Virus record (IMG/VR): IMGVR_UViG_2651869781_000011
Length of the DNA stretch: 34,848 nucleotides
From: a virus
Taxonomy: Duplodnaviria; Heunggongvirae; Uroviricota; Caudoviricetes
Reading direction: 5' to 3' (one strand)
Part shown: piece by piece, positions 7,998-18,078 of the stretch
Layout of the letters: the number at the start of each line of letters is the position of its first letter
Numbering within the stretch: the stretch's first letter is position 1
Notes under the pieces: generated by a model
Seen by the model: the letters and a program-made list of their open reading frames with translations, nothing else
Databases searched by the model: none
What the model was told of the DNA's origin: nothing
Program-made: the position numbers and the translations under genes

Positions 7998-8443
7998 TTA
8001 CTTAAGACCTCATCAATAGCCTGATTCATTCGCTGTATGGCAATCTGTGCTGCCAGTTCCTCTGTCGTATCGAAAGCCGGGCGAATGAACGGATGCGCGG
8101 GCATGTTTATCGTTCCCAGCTCCACAAAGCGCCAGTAAAACGCATTTCGGGGATCACTGGCTTTCATGCTGTTATCACTGTTTCCGGTTCGCAGGCTCCG
8201 TCCGCGAATGTGGACACCCGAGATAATTTCCCCCCGACGCTTTGAACGCTGAGTGAGAACAACCACATTTTTTTTCAGTTTTCCGGTTCGCTCCGGCGCA
8301 CGTTCAACAACAGCATCCCGCATAACTTCAGCACCGGCACGGGTGGCATCGCGCAGTACCTTATTATTTTCTGCCCTGCTGAGCGTCTCCAGATCCCGTG
8401 CAATATCCGCCAGACCTGAAAAATCAAGACTGAAATCCATCAC
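7994..8443 (-). CDS. HK97 gp10-family tail component
   Basis: 149 aa; position and sequence character consistent with HK97 gp10-like proteins. Confidence 0.6.
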   Translation of the reverse strand: MMDFSLDFSGLADIARDLETLSRAENNKVLRDATRAGAEVMRDAVVERAPERTGKLKKNVVVLTQRSKRRGEIISGVHIRGRSLRTGNSDNSMKASDPRNAFYWRFVELGTINMPAHPFIRPAFDTTEELAAQIAIQRMNQAIDEVLSK

Positions 8444-8778
8444 ACATTCCCCTTCTGAGAACAGAGTATCTCAAGCCGGGTGGCACGGGCATCCGGTATC
8501 GGCGGACCGTCTATACTCAGAATCGCGCCTTTGAATGCACCAGTCAGCACTTTCAGACATGAAGTTGCTGTCACATCTCGCCGGAATCTCATCCAGACCC
8601 TCACTGTAGCCTGAGCAGTTTCTGCGCCTCCGGATATTCTCTCCCTGCCACTGATCCCCTTAACTTCTGCCCATATGGTTGCCCCCTCCGTCATTGTTTC
8701 CACAGGGTGCCCTGATGGAGACCGAACGGTGGTGGCATTCAGAATAACCACACGATCACGTAATCTTCCTGCCTGCAT
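8440..8778 (-). CDS. Head-tail adaptor / head closure protein
   Basis: 112 aa; 4-nt overlap with the next gene; position in connector gene set. Confidence 0.55.
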   Translation of the reverse strand: MQAGRLRDRVVILNATTVRSPSGHPVETMTEGATIWAEVKGISGRERISGGAETAQATVRVWMRFRRDVTATSCLKVLTGAFKGAILSIDGPPIPDARATRLEILCSQKGNV

Positions 8779-10562: not shown

Positions 10563-11213
10563 TTAGAAGTTCAGATTTTTCAGTGCATTCAGTGCAGAGC
10601 CCACATCCTCAGCGTCGCGCAGGGACAGTGCGCCATAGCCCCCGGCCATGAATGCTTTGGCCTGGGTACGGGAGAGTCCGACATCACGCAGGACTCTTTC
10701 GATTTTTTTCTGTTCGGGGATTTCCCCGCGGGCCAGCGCGTTCTTGACGTCGCTGATCCGCGCCTCGTCGTTAGACGGAAACGTCACCAGACTGACTTCC
10801 CAGAGGTCGATTTCTTTCAGCAGAAAGGCTTCTTTCGTCCGGTCGTATTCCCAGTCCTTCAGGACGTACCCAATAGAAAGGCCGGTTAACGAACCGGCCT
10901 TCATGTGTGCATGTGCGCGTTTTGCCAGAGGATCATCATCAATGAGCAACCGCCCCCTGACGTAAAGCCCGACATCGTCTTCCTTCATTTCGGTGTAAAC
11001 ACCGATGGGCTCATCCATGCGGTGCTGCCAGAGCAGCGCAGGTAACGCTTTTCTGTCACTCCACGCCCGCAGGGAAGCAGCAAATGCCCCGGACATCACC
11101 ACATCATCGTGGCTGTCCTTTACACCAAAGACGGAGCCATACCCTTCAAACTCACCGGAGTCACTGACAGATTTCAGACTCAGCGGTACATCAAGACGTT
11201 GTTTCGTCTGCAT
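10563..11213 (-). CDS. Prohead maturation protease (HK97 gp4-like)
   Basis: Track ORF 10563-11249; ATG at 11213 has a GAAGGA SD; lies between portal and capsid. Confidence 0.8.
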   Translation of the reverse strand: MQTKQRLDVPLSLKSVSDSGEFEGYGSVFGVKDSHDDVVMSGAFAASLRAWSDRKALPALLWQHRMDEPIGVYTEMKEDDVGLYVRGRLLIDDDPLAKRAHAHMKAGSLTGLSIGYVLKDWEYDRTKEAFLLKEIDLWEVSLVTFPSNDEARISDVKNALARGEIPEQKKIERVLRDVGLSRTQAKAFMAGGYGALSLRDAEDVGSALNALKNLNF

Positions 11214-12432
11214 TGGCGTTATCCTTCTGCTTACCGGCTTTACTGCCATCGGAGGGTTTCGTGGTCATGTTCATCGGTGTGAGATAGACATCCCCACCGG
11301 GACGCGGATTCATATCTTCCAGGTCGCGGCAGTCATTGGGAGAGTAAATTCCCCAGTTAATCCCGGTGGCGTAGGCTTCAAAACGGGACTTCATATCCCC
11401 GCGCAGTAACGCCCCGGCGTTAAATTTGGCGTAATAAACGCCCTGCTTACTTTTTCGTACCAGTCCGGTGTTGATCCGCTGTTCGATGCGGGTCAGATAC
11501 GGCACCAGTGAATAGTTGATAAATCCGAGCCCCAGTTCTTCGATATTGTTGAAGGTGGCGCGATCGGTGTTCTGCACCATGTGCAACGGTACCCGGAACA
11601 GACGACAGATTTCTTCAAGCTGAAACTTGCGGGTTTCCAGGAACTGGCTGTCCTCGGCATTCAGCGCCATCGACTTCCAGTCCAGCCCCATCTCAAGGAT
11701 CATCGGGCGGTGAGCATTGCCAAGCCCGGTGTGACGCTCCTCAAAATCTTTCTTCAGGCGCTCATAAGCATCATCCGACAGCGTCTGCTCTGTACGCAGC
11801 ACACCCGACGTCACCGCGCCATTGCCGAACAGTCTGGCCCCGTGCTCTTCGGTCGCTGCCGCCAGCGATATTGCCTCGCGGGCATAGGCGACGGGATTCA
11901 GCCCTACCAGTCCGTCCAGCGTCAGCGTGCGCACATGCCAGATATCTTCCTGGCTCAGTACATCCGTGGAGCCGTCCGGGAATGTGACCTGATAGACCGG
12001 CTCCCAGCGACTGTTAAGCTTCGGTACCACACAACCGGGGTCGACGGGCAGCAGTTCAGCCACTTCGCCAAATGCTTTCACTTTGTAGGCGTAAAAGTTT
12101 CCCCGCAGGCACAGACAGGTGACCACCAGCTCCCAGAACTCCTGCGGCGTCATATAGCCATTGGGATGCGAGGAGATCAGCTTATGCAGACGTTCGCCGG
12201 TCGCTCTCTGTTTCAGGCTGCCGTTCAGGCGATACAGATTGCAGGGCAACATCCCGACCGACTCTGCCAGCACCCTGACGCAGGAAAAAACCGCCGTCAG
12301 TCGCATGGCCCGCTGGCTGCTGATCTGCTTTCCGGTATAGGTGTCATATGACAGCCCGATAGCATCTGCCAGCTCTGCTGGCGTGGTCACCGGCGCGTCA
12401 CTTTTTCGTTGAAATAATCCCGAAAAGAACAC
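11191..12432 (-). CDS. Portal protein (HK97 family)
   Basis: 413 aa; apparent GTG start overlapping the stop of the small upstream ORF; follows TerL. Confidence 0.85.
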   Translation of the reverse strand: MFFSGLFQRKSDAPVTTPAELADAIGLSYDTYTGKQISSQRAMRLTAVFSCVRVLAESVGMLPCNLYRLNGSLKQRATGERLHKLISSHPNGYMTPQEFWELVVTCLCLRGNFYAYKVKAFGEVAELLPVDPGCVVPKLNSRWEPVYQVTFPDGSTDVLSQEDIWHVRTLTLDGLVGLNPVAYAREAISLAAATEEHGARLFGNGAVTSGVLRTEQTLSDDAYERLKKDFEERHTGLGNAHRPMILEMGLDWKSMALNAEDSQFLETRKFQLEEICRLFRVPLHMVQNTDRATFNNIEELGLGFINYSLVPYLTRIEQRINTGLVRKSKQGVYYAKFNAGALLRGDMKSRFEAYATGINWGIYSPNDCRDLEDMNPRPGGDVYLTPMNMTTKPSDGSKAGKQKDNANADETTS

Positions 12433-12614
12433 TATTTACCTCCGCTGACAGACGGCAATGTACGGTCGAGATATCGCGCCACCAGCCACGACCAGAACAG
12501 GCACAGCCCCCCGGCAACAACAAAACCCGCAGGGGGATAAATCAGCCAGGCACCATACGCCAGCAAAAGCGCACCCAGCACGCCCACCAGTGGCGCGAGA
12601 ATTATCAGAAACAT
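12432..12614 (-). CDS. Small hydrophobic protein (60 aa, predicted 2 TM helices)
   Basis: [49 protein letters not shown]...; GAGG SD; starts 12 nt after TerL stop, stop overlaps portal start. Confidence 0.4.
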
Positions 12615-12625
12615 AATGACCTCGG

Positions 12626-14383
12626 TTAAAGCGAGCGGATGCCCACGCTGACCAAATGTTCAGACAGATCCGGCTCCGGTTCACCACCATTGACCAGCAT
12701 CCGGCTCATTGCTGTAAACATCGCAACAGGGCCATCGATTTTGGCTTCCGGCGTGGATTTATTCGGGAAGATATTGTCGTTTTTGTCCGGTTTTACCGTA
12801 ACGTTAGACATCATCCAGTTCATGACCGGATGATTGCTGTGATGGAAACGCCCGGCATAGACCAGTGATTCCGTTTCCTTCATGGCCTCTGACAGATTGC
12901 GGACCGTCTGCGGAACCTCCACCAGAGGTATCCCTTCTTCAGCCAGTGCAAGGCTGAACTGCATCGCGCTCCACGGGTCAAATCCCAGCTCCCTGAGGTT
13001 TTCACCACCAATCCATTCCAGTAAATCACTTTTTATCTGAGCATGATCGATAACATCACCATCCGTCAGGATAAGCTTATCCATCTCCGCCCATTTCCGG
13101 TAAAGCTCCGCCATCTGCCGCGAGCACCGCTCCAGCCGTCCTTCCGGAAGCCAGAATTTAAAATCGGCATGAACATGTCCGTTATCGGTTCGCCAGAGTT
13201 TTGCCGCCGCACAGATATCAATCTTATGAGCAAGGTCTACACCGACCCACATGGGATATGTTTTCAGCTCATGCTGTGGAGCAATGTATTCGCACATCTC
13301 CCACTTAATCATGTCCATCCAGGCAGATTCGGCAGTGACCCACACATTCATGTGTTTCGTGAAAAAATTCACCCGCGCCGAGACCTGCTCCTTCGCCTTT
13401 TTCGCCAGACGACGCAGATCATCCCAGCGCTTACAGATGCCCAGGCCCGGATTCGCTTTCTGCCAGACCGTTTCATCAAACGGATCATCTCCCTCATCGA
13501 GGGTGTAAATAATCGCAAAGTAGGAATCGTCTTTTACCGCGCCCTCCACGTCGCTGTTATATCCTCGCAATACCTTGATGGCGTAATCGCGTTGCTCGTA
13601 ACAAATCCCTTCCTTGTTAAAGCCAGCCGTGGTGATACCAAATAAAAGGGACTGCAGACGGGCACCGGTTGCCGTTTCCAGAACGTCCCACACGTCGCGG
13701 GTTTTATGTGCATGCAGCTCATCAATAATGGCGCAGTGGATGTTCAGACCGTCCAGGTTGTTTGCATCCGAGGAAAGCGGTTCAAATTTTGATGCGCTCT
13801 GCTCCTGGTAAATCGCCAGCTTGTTGAAATCAAACAACCGCCCGAGTGTCGACCGGGCTTTTCTGACCATATTTTTGGCGTCTTCAAACACGATTCTGGC
13901 CTGGTCACGCGTGGTTGCGGCTGAATACACCTCAGCACCGCCTTCACCATCTGCCCCCGTCATATAAAGACCGATACCCGATGACAGGGTTGATTTTGCG
14001 TTTTTACGGGCGACTTCGTTGTACGCCGTCCGGAACCGGCGCACCATCACCGGGCGTCCGCTGCCATCGCTGCGCATGACAACTTCCCCGGTCTCTTCAT
14101 TCACCAGCGGAATGACAAAACCAAAAATATTAATGAGGATAAATACATGCCAGTCCATCAACTCAATGGGCTGGCCTGCCAGCGCCCCTTTTACATGAGG
14201 CACAAATTTATAGAAATTCAGGATGTGTTGTGCACGGGGTTCACTGAAATAAATCCCCCGCTCTTCGCCGTACTTCAGATCATCAAGAAAACGCTGGCAG
14301 GCCAGACGGACAAATTCGCCAGCAACAATTTCTCCTGCAACAACACGTTCGGCGTAGCGGATCCCGTCAGCCACTTTTGCCAT
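12626..14383 (-). CDS. Terminase large subunit
   Basis: 585 aa; TerL-like sequence; start overlaps TerS end. Confidence 0.9.
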
Positions 14384-15011: not shown

Positions 15012-15362
15012 TCAGTTGATGCGTTCGCGCGCTGTTTTTGCTTTATGGCAGGACCAGCACAGACTCTGCAGGTTACTGTCTGCATCCGTGCCACCATGAG
15101 CTTTCGGAATGATGTGGTCCACAGTTCTGGCTTCAACGGCTCTCCCATTGCGCAGGCAGTTCTGACACAGATGATTATCACGCTTCAGTATGCGCGCACG
15201 TATGGTATCCCATTTCGAACCATATCCACGCTGGTGGCGGCTCAGTCCGCGTTGATGCTGTACCCATCCTTCGCCACGATGTGTATCACAGTAACCAGAA
15301 CTGTCTGTGGTTGTATCTGCACATCCACGCTTACGACAGGCGCGTGGGATTCGTGATGGCAT
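15012..15362 (-). CDS. HNH endonuclease (packaging-associated)
   Basis: 116 aa, Cys-rich with ...HIIPKAHGGTDADSNLQSLCWSCH...; sits just upstream of terminase as in HK97-like cos phages. Confidence 0.85.
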   Translation of the reverse strand: MPSRIPRACRKRGCADTTTDSSGYCDTHRGEGWVQHQRGLSRHQRGYGSKWDTIRARILKRDNHLCQNCLRNGRAVEARTVDHIIPKAHGGTDADSNLQSLCWSCHKAKTARERIN

Positions 15363-15704: not shown

Positions 15705-16169
15705 CTACTTAATGCACTGATCGCGGATATATTCCTGCAATCCCCTGATCATTTTTTCGCTGGTTGCAGCTCGCTCTCTGAGGATGAAATAATCCCGTTG
15801 AGCGGAGTCAGTAAGTCCGGGGCTGGCTGCATCATCCACGCCGGAGGAGGCGGTGGCTTCACGCACGGCTGGACAGACTGCTCTGATGCGCAACCGACGA
15901 CGACCAGCGGCAATATCATCACGCAGAGCATCATTTTCAGCTTTCGCATCAGCTAATTCCTTTGAATATTTTGCATCGAGTGCAGCAACGTCACGCTGGC
16001 GCACCTGCATATCAGTAATGATCGCCTCTGCCAGTTTCAGCTCTCTGGCATTGTCATCGCGTTGTGTTTTGTAGGTAATGGCGTTATCGCGGTAATGCTC
16101 TGTTGCCAGCCACAGAGCACTACAGACCATCAGCAGGACAATAATCACGCCATACAGAATTCGGTTCAT
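15705..16169 (-). CDS. Rz: Rz i-spanin
   Basis: From ATG 16169: MNRILYGVIIVLLMVCSALWLATEHYRDNAITYK...; close to lambda Rz as recalled; N-terminal TM anchor. Confidence 0.85.
   Translation of the reverse strand: MNRILYGVIIVLLMVCSALWLATEHYRDNAITYKTQRDDNARELKLAEAIITDMQVRQRDVAALDAKYSKELADAKAENDALRDDIAAGRRRLRIRAVCPAVREATASSGVDDAASPGLTDSAQRDYFILRERAATSEKMIRGLQEYIRDQCIK
15749..15949 (-). CDS. Rz1: Rz1 o-spanin lipoprotein, embedded in Rz in another frame
   Basis: 66 aa MRKLKMMLCVMILPLVVVGCASEQ...PPPPPAWMMQP...; lipobox VVGC, Pro-rich; fully inside Rz. Confidence 0.8.
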   Translation of the reverse strand: MRKLKMMLCVMILPLVVVGCASEQSVQPCVKPPPPPAWMMQPAPDLLTPLNGIISSSESELQPAKK

Positions 16170-16343
16170 TTCACCACCAGCGTATCTGACCGATGAAATA
16201 ACCGGAGCCCATAACCACAAACACCAGCCAGATAAGGATGAACTTCCAGATGGATAATTTTTCAGCCATCACTCGAATCTCCAGAATCAGTTTGCTAAAA
16301 TCAAACACGTTTTCTCCTTTAGCTTTCCCATGGGCAGAAAACA

Positions 16344-16380
16344 AAACCCCGCTTGCTGCCAACAAACGGGGTTTTTGCTT
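16344..16380. terminator. Bidirectional stem-loop with flanking T/A runs between endolysin and Rz
   Basis: AAACCCCG...CGGGGTTT stem followed by TTTTGCTTTTATT on +, and by a T-run on the minus strand. Confidence 0.35.
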
Positions 16381-16465
16381 TTATTCACTTACCTTTTGCC
16401 AGTTTGCAGAATATCGTGCTATCCGCTTGTGTGAGCAAACGGCATTTTTCAGCAAAATATTCTGC

Positions 16466-16999
16466 TTATCTGTCGATCCCCCAGCACACCAGCGCACTCT
16501 CCTGGTCACGACGAATAACCTGACCGTAACAGTTATTTGAACGAATGCGGCAATCACGGCCACCGTCCTTAATCCACCAGCGAATCGCCTCGCATGCGCC
16601 TTTGCGATCACCGGCATTCAGCCGCTTATAAAACGTCGACGGGAAACACTTACCGGGGCCAATGTTATAGGGACAAAATGACGCAATACCTGCTTTTTGT
16701 GGTTCGGTCAGTGGTACTTTTATATTGCGATCCACCCATGCCAGCGCCTTATCACGTTCAATAGCGTTAACCTGGTCGCATTTTTCCTTCGACAGCTTCA
16801 TTCCCGGTATGACGGGCTTACCATCCACCATTGTGGCACCACGACAGATGGTCCATATGCCAGAACCATCACGGTATGCCGTTGTGTGGTTACCTTCTTT
16901 TTCATCCAGAAACTGGTCAAGTATTTGAGGAGCAGACGCGCCTGCAGCAATCAGCGCCAGAACGGCAGCTGACAGGCCGTATTTGATTTTTGCGTTCAT
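16466..16999 (-). CDS. R: SAR endolysin (T4-lysozyme-like, GH24)
   Basis: 177 aa; N-terminal Ala/Gly-rich signal-anchor-release segment (YGLSAAVLALIAAGASAP); resembles Stx-phage-type endolysins as recalled. Confidence 0.9.
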   Translation of the reverse strand: MNAKIKYGLSAAVLALIAAGASAPQILDQFLDEKEGNHTTAYRDGSGIWTICRGATMVDGKPVIPGMKLSKEKCDQVNAIERDKALAWVDRNIKVPLTEPQKAGIASFCPYNIGPGKCFPSTFYKRLNAGDRKGACEAIRWWIKDGGRDCRIRSNNCYGQVIRRDQESALVCWGIDR

Positions 17000-17062
17000 G
17001 GATATTTATCAGAATTTACCGGTTTCTGCCCATGGACAGGTTTATCTGTTCCGGTCAGTGGC

Positions 17063-17413
17063 TTAAGGTTGCGATTCCGGAGGAGTCTTCAGAGAACAAG
17101 TAATTCTTCCCGGTAGCTTTCCTTTGTAGGTTACCCACACATTCTGCGCCTCAAAAATTATGGGGCGTTTTTCTGGCGACGGCTCATCCCATTCACATAA
17201 CCTGGCAGCAACATCCAGAAATACCTGTCTGATTCTCCTTCTGGCTGCTGCCTCATAAAACTCCAGCGCAGCACCTTCAACACGGTCCATGGTGATGTCC
17301 AGGTCAAAAATTTCACCGTCAAAGCGTTCTTTGTTCCGTAAGGCTAAAGTTACCGCAACTTTATTCTCAAAATTGCGGACTCCCTTAACAACCAGTTCAT
17401 AGTTTTGAGTCAT
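17063..17413 (-). CDS. Hypothetical cytoplasmic protein (116 aa) inserted between holin and endolysin
   Basis: ATG 17413 lies 4 nt after the holin stop with a GGGAGAG SD; no TM segment or signal peptide. Confidence 0.55.
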   Translation of the reverse strand: MTQNYELVVKGVRNFENKVAVTLALRNKERFDGEIFDLDITMDRVEGAALEFYEAAARRRIRQVFLDVAARLCEWDEPSPEKRPIIFEAQNVWVTYKGKLPGRITCSLKTPPESQP

Positions 17414-17417
17414 TAAA

Positions 17418-17633
17418 TTACTCTCCCCGCGCAGCCTTACGCTTGTCTTCTCTGATTTTGAAGTACAGATTTGTCAGATAAGTCAGGAAGCCCAGAACCA
17501 GACTCCCCAGCACACCAATCGCAGCCCACTGTGACGGACTGACCTGATCAAGCCACTGTAAAAACCAGTAGCCAGCACTGCCTGCGGAGGTGCCGTAGGC
17601 AATGCCAGTTGAAATTTTGTCCATGGATTTCAT
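17418..17633 (-). CDS. S: Pinholin (phage 21 S-type holin)
   Basis: 71 aa [27 protein letters not shown]...; near-identical to S21 as recalled; pairs with the SAR endolysin. Confidence 0.85.
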
Positions 17634-17924: not shown

Positions 17925-17999
<75 letters not shown>

Positions 18000-18002
18000 A
18001 TA

Positions 18003-18078
<76 letters not shown>

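Follow-up and report, generated by a model that had tools for sequence, protein, structure and literature searches.

For HK97-like phages, head assembly and DNA packaging are viewed as taking place entirely in the cytoplasm. Phage T4 offers the only established case of a tailed-phage portal that is put together at the inner membrane with the aid of a small protein of the phage itself, gp40, which together with the host YidC serves as a membrane-associated chaperone for assembly of the portal protein gp20 (PMC4493910). Here we describe a tiny gene, predicted to encode a small inner-membrane helical hairpin, that sits inside the packaging and head module of an HK97-type prophage between the genes for the large terminase (TerL) and the portal. 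It occupies 12432..12614 on the minus strand of the IMG/VR virus record IMGVR_UViG_2651869781_000011, a Caudoviricetes stretch of 34,848 nucleotides that is referred to below as the window. The gene and its family, phrog_502, are already known as an uncharacterised membrane protein, and the window gene is no oddity of one phage. The same 60-residue gene, in the same slot and with the same spacer and stop/start overlap, is found at 86-95% identity in phiP27 (as a "putative integral membrane protein"), ST64B (sb3/Sb3), SfII (SfII_03), SfI and phi467. The window allele differs from these in few residues (G36, L53, S57), and a protein identical to it is already in databases (P0001). What we did not find described in the literature is a superfamily-wide sequence signature, strict synteny with TerL and portal across phyla, and inheritance together with the portal.

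The hairpin gene starts with ATG at 12614-12612 and runs for 60 codons to a TAG at 12434-12432. Upstream on the same strand, TerL (12626..14383; PF03354 and PF20441) ends in TAA at 12628-12626, leaving a spacer of 11 nt (12615..12625) in which the GAGG at 12623-12620 provides the gene with its own Shine-Dalgarno sequence (SD) 5 nt from the ATG. Downstream, the stop codon and the GTG start of the HK97-family portal gene (11191..12432, minus strand; PF04860) overlap by a single base in the pentamer TAGTG (12430..12434), the G at 12432 being common to both codons. The portal SD, GGAGG at 12439..12443, lies 6 nt from that GTG and is written by the codons of Gly58 and Gly59 of the hairpin protein. 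An earlier note on this locus, accurate in its description except that it left the strand unstated, had proposed translational coupling on both sides of the gene. Toward the portal, the conserved stop/start overlap makes a predicted coupling structurally clear, and in a 58%-identical Enterobacter relative a TGATG takes the place of TAGTG; toward TerL, what was called coupling is only close spacing with a separate SD.

Selection and conservation both indicate that this is a real gene. A pooled Nei-Gojobori analysis of 47 distinct alleles, drawn from 94 loci with a 60-codon copy and without any indels among them, gave a ratio of nonsynonymous to synonymous substitution rates (dN/dS) of 0.38 over all codons of the hairpin frame, 0.26 for the helical core (codons 1-47) and 0.89 for the tail (codons 48-60), which is nearly neutral except for its terminal Gly-Gly. 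The five alternative frames gave 0.58-1.69; all of these ratios are only rough because allele pairs are not independent, and the preference for the hairpin frame is still clear. In a separate clade of 67-residue proteins from Reyranella-type prophages, dN/dS was 0.235. Loci found by similarity to the hairpin protein carried the intact 183-nt open reading frame (ORF) with the same spacer, SD and stop/start overlap in 84 of 84 cases. Loci found independently by portal similarity were scored only for an intact ORF ending at the portal start, the spacer being scored in the other 84, and 80 of 80 had such an ORF of 60 residues; loss or disruption in close relatives, named beforehand as grounds for doubting the gene, is thus not what these phages display. 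The 183-nt gene is present at an identity of at least 90% in 1345 of 5426 complete E. coli genomes (25%). The sole disrupted copy seen is the second of two prophage copies in Shigella flexneri SFBU0723 (CP182557.1; L095:3001-3179), where a 1-nt deletion shifts the frame after about codon 27. Taken together, these comparisons of alleles and loci show that 12614..12432 on the minus strand is a protein-coding gene under purifying selection, as far as sequence can show it.

Signals of independent expression did not emerge. Promoter-like and terminator-like sites at the hairpin gene were not above shuffle expectation in a scan for consensus sequences only, and RNA folding of the region gave no significant structure (z=0.68). 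A promoter-like site at 12629..12601 (minus strand), with the sole -10 hexamer inside the ORF, is within chance. The SfII record carries a "putative rho-independent terminator" at the 5' end of SfII_03 (L001:2370-2419, equivalent to about 12606-12557 of the window), which is unsupported by the terminator scan of the window and by the folding result.

The encoded protein has a grand average of hydropathy (GRAVY) of 1.30, no charged side chain in residues 1-46, and two hydrophobic stretches divided by IYPPAG. AlphaFold2, given a 31-sequence alignment, predicts a helical hairpin (residues 2-25 and 27-52) with a disordered tail (pLDDT 76). These two hydrophobic stretches and the modelled hairpin, together with purifying selection, bear out the earlier proposal of a genuine two-helix membrane protein. 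Hydropathy, model and conservation agree on a first transmembrane helix at codons 2-25 (12540..12611), with conserved small residues at G11, G14 and G21, and a second at codons 27-47 (12474..12536), which contains G30, G35, C38 and W41-S42-W43 and ends at the basic R47. Between them, the tight turn W-L-I-Y-P-P-A-G-F (codons 23-31; 12522..12548) forms the signature of the superfamily and is predicted to lie on the periplasmic side, and codons 48-60 (12435..12473) make up a short tail predicted to be cytoplasmic; all four elements are on the minus strand.

Across 31 members with 58-93% identity, the invariant residues are M1, P8, G11, G14, L17, L18, G21, W23, I25, Y26, P27, G30, G35, C38, L39, W41, S42, G58 and G59. 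Since G58 and G59 encode the portal SD, their invariance reflects a constraint at the nucleotide level. In a broader set of 137 representatives, conservation amounts to 97% for G14, 99% for G21, 85% for W23, 72% for Y26, 84% for P28, 77% for A29, 88% for G30, 96% for G35 and 72% for a basic residue (R/K) at position 47; the window protein has all the signature residues (G14, G21, W23, Y26-P-P-A-G30, G35 and basic 47). Averaged over this set, net charge comes to +1.07 for the N-terminus, +0.05 for the loop and +1.05 for the stretch that follows helix 2, from which the positive-inside rule predicts a cytoplasmic-membrane protein with both termini inside and the YPPAG turn outside. We infer that conserved glycines mediate packing of the hairpin, and the existence of natural fusions of two hairpins makes self-association probable. 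These tandem fusions are single proteins of 102-122 residues (P0151, P0165, P0174, P0202; also L135:64-399), of which P0165 still stands directly ahead of a portal-like gene, and they hint that the hairpin acts as an oligomer. An AlphaFold2 model of P0165 from its single sequence is of low confidence (pLDDT 62) and uninformative on oligomer geometry.

A search of the PHROGs profile hidden Markov models (HMMs) places the window protein in phrog_502 ("membrane protein"; E=2.8e-25, residues 1-54 against profile positions 3-56 of 58), a family filed under "moron, auxiliary metabolic gene and host takeover". A word-indexed search returned 161 clusters at 90% identity across Enterobacterales, nearly all exactly 60 residues long, and a profile search of 1.84 billion representatives returned 376 proteins at E<=1e-3; among the profile matches listed, lengths are 26-122 residues, mostly 45-100, and four are the two-hairpin fusions. 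These searches show a superfamily of roughly 45-120-residue proteins with the signature G-x6-G-A-W-x-I-Y-P-P-A-G-F-x3-G, which PHROG splits into phrog_502, 7105, 4810 and 1142. In one-genome-per-species contigs, relatives occur in Shigella, Escherichia, Edwardsiella, Mangrovibacter, Scandinavium and Citrobacter, in the Alphaproteobacteria Reyranella, Shinella and Enhydrobacter, in Rhodoferax, in Lysobacterales and in metagenome-assembled genomes (MAGs) of Ruminococcaceae, so that the genome loci span Enterobacterales, Alpha-, Beta- and Gammaproteobacteria, and Ruminococcaceae. The homology search suggested in the earlier note thus uncovered a superfamily that spans phyla, and the presence of such a gene in a packaging and head operon, there called unexpected, is rather recurrent but unexplained. 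Two records seem to place the window's own module in Gram-positive hosts, namely OR844959.1 ("Enterococcus phage Efm 3-10", 1764 bp) and L087 (JAEWTL010000102.1, "MAG: Bacillota bacterium"). At 94-98% identity to the Escherichia/Shigella phage module described here, both probably represent contamination or mis-binning, not true Gram-positive hosts.

Other resources are silent on the family. Scans of the hairpin protein found no Pfam family at E<=0.01, no NCBIfam match, and no PADLOC-DB family at E<=1, the last being weak evidence since PADLOC includes few superinfection-exclusion proteins. Among 43 diverse relatives, Pfam yielded only sub-threshold matches to generic transmembrane families (DUF1206 in 9 of 43, best E 0.002). 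Searches of PDB sequences with two profiles gave nothing meaningful, and Foldseek of the AlphaFold2 hairpin against BFVD returned only uncharacterised small phage proteins, none at E<=0.001, the two-helix model being too simple to inform. The literature, including papers on the SPP1 genome, Microbacterium phages, Paenibacillus phages and SfIV, yielded no function for any member. Several records (ON470580.1, ON470584.1, ON470603.1 and PQ793804.1, the last at L002:2787-2969) label a 60-residue hydrophobic ORF as "head-tail joining protein W". The label is a positional analogy to the lambda A-W-B order, without support from the sequence and wrong for the hairpin, and is likely a misannotation that is propagating. 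The family merits a Pfam or NCBIfam model, and the W labels need correcting.

The position of the gene is as constant as its sequence. A portal homologue lies directly downstream in 30 of 32 loci from one-genome-per-species contigs, the remaining two being decayed remnants. Seven distant profile matches were chosen arbitrarily: six stand directly ahead of a PF04860 portal, usually overlapping it or a few nucleotides apart, and in the seventh locus (P0165) the gene that follows is truncated and, by tblastn, 39% identical to the window portal. TerL was called upstream in three of these seven loci, the other contigs being too short to tell, and the protease of the distant modules varies between S78 and S49. 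In about 130 loci the hairpin gene was never seen away from the slot between TerL and portal. Every intact locus examined shows it between a TerL of the PF03354/PF20441 type and an HK97-family portal (PF04860), and the position first noticed in the window is therefore one of conserved synteny.

Within this slot the gene travels with the portal. Hairpin and portal remain 86-97% and 97-99% identical, respectively, whether the accompanying TerL is 99% or about 36% identical, and homology breaks 17-19 nt ahead of the TerL stop. Conversely, phage Evi has a TerL that is 99% identical to that of the window and a portal that is only 29% identical, and its slot holds a different two-helix ORF of 53 residues (phrog_7105, a family that weakly cross-hits phrog_502). 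As hairpin and portal stay together across TerL types and Evi swaps both, the hairpin gene is exchanged with the portal. Its GC content by codon position is likewise similar to that of the portal and unlike that of TerL. A mosaic junction can be seen at the 3' end of TerL (window 12644-12684, within its last ~20-60 nt): in phages that share only hairpin and portal with the window, and have a TerL about 36% identical, homology begins at about 12644, and in phages that share only TerL it stops at about 12684. The hairpin gene is independent of tail type, occurring in siphoviruses and myoviruses alike; SfII, ST64B and the Enterobacter relative (L004) have sheathed tails, whereas the tail genes of the window are HK97/lambda-like and non-contractile.

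How general the arrangement is was surveyed in 16 phages taken at even steps of a tblastn ranking of portal homologues and picked for host diversity, 14 of which have TerL just upstream of the portal. Four of the 14 have a two-helix ORF of 53-68 residues in the slot (Vibrio K304, Vibrio pVa-7, Pseudomonas FBPa47 and Bacillus phi4I1, unannotated). Seven leave no room for a gene (Acutalibacteraceae phage NatCom_11578, Acinetobacter fLi-Aba02, Komagataeibacter phiKM1, Moraxella Mcat28, Burkholderia vB_E175, mEpX1 and Vibrio 11E33.1), and in three the slot holds something else: a toxin-antitoxin in Streptococcus Javan92, MazF in Campylobacter CJIE4-2 and a hydrophilic ORF in Agathobacter phage NatCom_13861. 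In HK97 itself, the TerL and portal genes overlap and the slot is empty. A hairpin in this slot is thus recurrent but facultative. The four hairpins assign to phrog_7105, 4810 and 1142, whose HMMs cross-hit one another as well as phrog_502; hydrophobic composition may account for part of these matches. The phi4I1 ORF, from a phage of a Gram-positive host, has 53 residues (L124:1017-1178, KT967075.1) and matches phrog_1142 at E=1.6e-14. The toxin-antitoxin genes, a DinJ/RelE-like pair in Javan92 (L121:129-736) and MazF in CJIE4-2 (L126:517-951), make the TerL-portal junction a landing site for true morons as well.

What the hairpin protein does we can infer only from these patterns, and we tentatively favour, as a possibility held with limited confidence, that it is a dispensable, membrane-acting accessory of the portal and head-packaging module. 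In such a scheme the protein would be made from the late polycistronic mRNA only. A ribosome ending at the TAG would restart at the overlapping portal GTG by means of the GGAGG in the last two glycine codons, and portal synthesis would in this way be tied to the hairpin in time, place and amount. Most plausibly, the hairpin would then offer a membrane site for portal-initiated procapsid assembly or for packaging, or recruit a universal membrane chaperone. A stronger version, in which HK97-type head assembly or DNA packaging includes a membrane-associated step that has gone unrecognised and that the hairpin marks, strikes us as improbable; here an oligomeric hairpin ring in the inner membrane, perhaps 12-fold and made in cis with the portal, might for example serve as a nucleus or anchor for the portal dodecamer or bring in YidC-like machinery.

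Several observations weigh against a role as a portal accessory. HK97 and seven of the 14 sampled modules, that of mEpX1 among them, have no gene in the slot, and the hairpin is therefore no general requirement for assembly. Its predicted cytoplasmic part consists of Met1 and the near-neutral 13-residue tail, while portal and terminase are cytoplasmic, and the motif that is conserved best is predicted to lie on the outer side. Over long evolutionary range, identity is 45-61% in the aligned core, which covers 51-70% of the length, versus 28-39% for the portals; a core kept better than the portals is more readily explained by a universal constraint from host or lipid than by co-evolution of hairpin and portal. 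This argument is limited to the core motif, as at short range the whole hairpin diverges faster than the portal (59-65% versus 80-83%). Portal N-termini show no feature that separates modules with a hairpin from those without, similarity to T4 gp40 was not found (hhalign probability 0.3%), and no experimental, proteomic, Ribo-seq or structural record was found for any member. Finally, as the hairpin gene contains the SD and start of the portal gene, part of the strict synteny could have been frozen in by accident.

The same features make a late membrane effector, aimed at the host and carried along in the portal module, the strongest rival, somewhat unlikely as we judge it. Such an effector might adjust lysis timing in the manner of an antiholin or holin modulator, alter permeability or membrane potential, block superinfecting DNA or blunt a membrane-acting defence, acting on a universal inner-membrane target or on the bilayer itself. 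It would suit a protein that is essentially all transmembrane, poor in cytoplasmic parts and constrained in a core whose best-kept motif is predicted to point outward, a motif common to phages of Gram-negative bacteria and of Ruminococcaceae whose portals and TerL are only 22-39% identical, and it would explain how HK97 manages without the gene. The PHROG category points the same way, as does the capture of toxin-antitoxin morons by the slot in other phages. Yet a gene with neither promoter nor terminator of its own is unlikely to be expressed from a repressed prophage, it was never found off the TerL-portal slot, and its presence in all 80 portal-selected relatives is unlike the patchiness of morons. 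PADLOC and holin families gave no match, and the lysis cassette of the window is already complete, with an S21-type pinholin, a SAR lysozyme and Rz. The hint of superinfection exclusion in the earlier note gains no specific support here, the gene having no expression signals beyond chance and no PADLOC match and behaving as part of the portal module.

The remaining explanations carry less weight. As one head takes only 12 copies of the portal, the short ORF might be a translational device that meters ribosomes to the portal start or brings the late mRNA to the membrane, its peptide having little or no function. The overlap and in-ORF SD kept in all loci, the invariant Gly-Gly that the SD accounts for and the near-neutral tail would all follow, and other phages join TerL and portal directly by overlap. 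We nonetheless think this quite improbable, given the low dN/dS in two independent clades with a clearly favoured frame, several residues conserved in 84-99% of the 137 divergent representatives, a length steady at about 60 residues, and a glycine-packed hairpin with an invariant turn that a pure spacer would not need. A peptide carried in the virion or bound to the portal, as a plug of its channel or as a pilot entering the membrane of the next host with the DNA, would agree with the portal-level stoichiometry implied by coupling and with the association with portals regardless of tail type; small membrane proteins, P20 and P22, are found at the packaging vertex of PRD1. It is very unlikely all the same: 46 uncharged N-terminal residues would be hard to keep soluble in the lipid-free head of a tailed phage, no PDB chain from any phage particle matches, and the very well studied virions of HK97, which lacks the gene, have no such component. 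That no gene exists here at all, the ORF being a chance spacer or the true feature lying in another frame or strand (84 residues at 12436..12690, minus; 52 residues at 12458..12616, plus), is barely credible. The ORF is short and unannotated in some records (SfIV, PY54), but its purifying selection is frame-specific, it is intact in 164 of 164 close loci with conserved length, no RNA structure was detected, and its profile family spans phyla; conservation rules out the chance ORF. Least credible of all is a head-tail joining (head completion) protein of the lambda gpW type, for which the position, mirroring lambda A-W-B, and a similar size speak. The protein is a hydrophobic hairpin without a match to any Pfam family, gpW (PF02831) included, and HK97-type genes for head completion are already present in the module (PF05521 at 8440-8778 of the window; Phage_connect_1 in L004), so that identity with gpW was rejected.

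The module reads HNH, TerS, TerL, hairpin ORF, portal, S78 protease and HK97-fold capsid; the HNH endonuclease gene (15012-15362, minus strand) lies directly upstream of TerS, in an order typical for HK97-like cos packaging modules. A complete lysis cassette of the phage-21 type spans 15705-17633 on the minus strand and comprises an S21-like pinholin (17418-17633), a DUF1327 ORF (17063-17413), a SAR-type lysozyme (16466-16999) and Rz (15705-16220); tRNA-Gly(TCC) and tRNA-Thr(TGT) genes precede it at 17925-18078 (minus strand). Two-helix mini-ORFs in the corresponding slot are unannotated in SfIV (KC814930.1, 2376-2483) and PY54 (AJ564013.1, ~2382-2444).

The pattern matters more than the single gene: a tiny hairpin with a near-invariant turn, locked in one slot from Proteobacteria to Ruminococcaceae and inherited with the portal. 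A conserved membrane protein in a module held to be cytoplasmic would mark either a membrane-linked step that has been overlooked or a membrane effector that hitch-hikes with great success. If the former were true, building or filling of heads at the membrane, as in T4, would extend to many temperate phages from different bacterial phyla.

Counterparts among known systems include the sister families of the slot, phrog_7105 (Evi), phrog_4810 (the D3-like FBPa47 and Vibrio pVa-7) and phrog_1142 (phi4I1), along with phiKO2 gp3 and the PY54 region. They resemble the window gene in being 50-70-residue two-helix proteins between TerL and portal whose HMMs cross-hit. They differ in their degenerate turn motif, for example AGLPAS in Evi, and show no similarity detectable by BLAST; homology rests on weak profile cross-hits, which are possibly inflated by composition. 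Class II holins and the pinholin S21 are likewise small, glycine-rich, two-helix late membrane proteins, whereas the hairpin gene is not beside an endolysin. The window protein matched no holin family, and two of 43 relatives did so only at E~0.09; the hairpin was rejected as the holin of this phage, which has its S21-type pinholin in the separate lysis cassette. Lambda gpW shares the small size and the gene position between the large terminase and the portal, and differs in being soluble and acting in head completion. HK97 gp15 is a superinfection exclusion moron in the structural operon, and morons of this kind resemble the hairpin as small inner-membrane proteins within a morphogenesis operon. 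They bring along a promoter and a terminator, occur patchily among relatives and are expressed in the prophage state, whereas the hairpin gene has no such signals, is constant among its relatives and keeps to one slot across phyla. With no promoter or terminator of its own, no patchiness and a GC content like that of the portal, the identity of a classical moron was rejected. For function, T4 gp40 is the analogy we favour, and analogy is all that it may offer: homology is rejected by the profile comparison above, gp40 has 114 residues and is largely hydrophilic, its gene is not beside the portal gene, and the gene order of T4 is not that of an HK97-type TerL/portal module.

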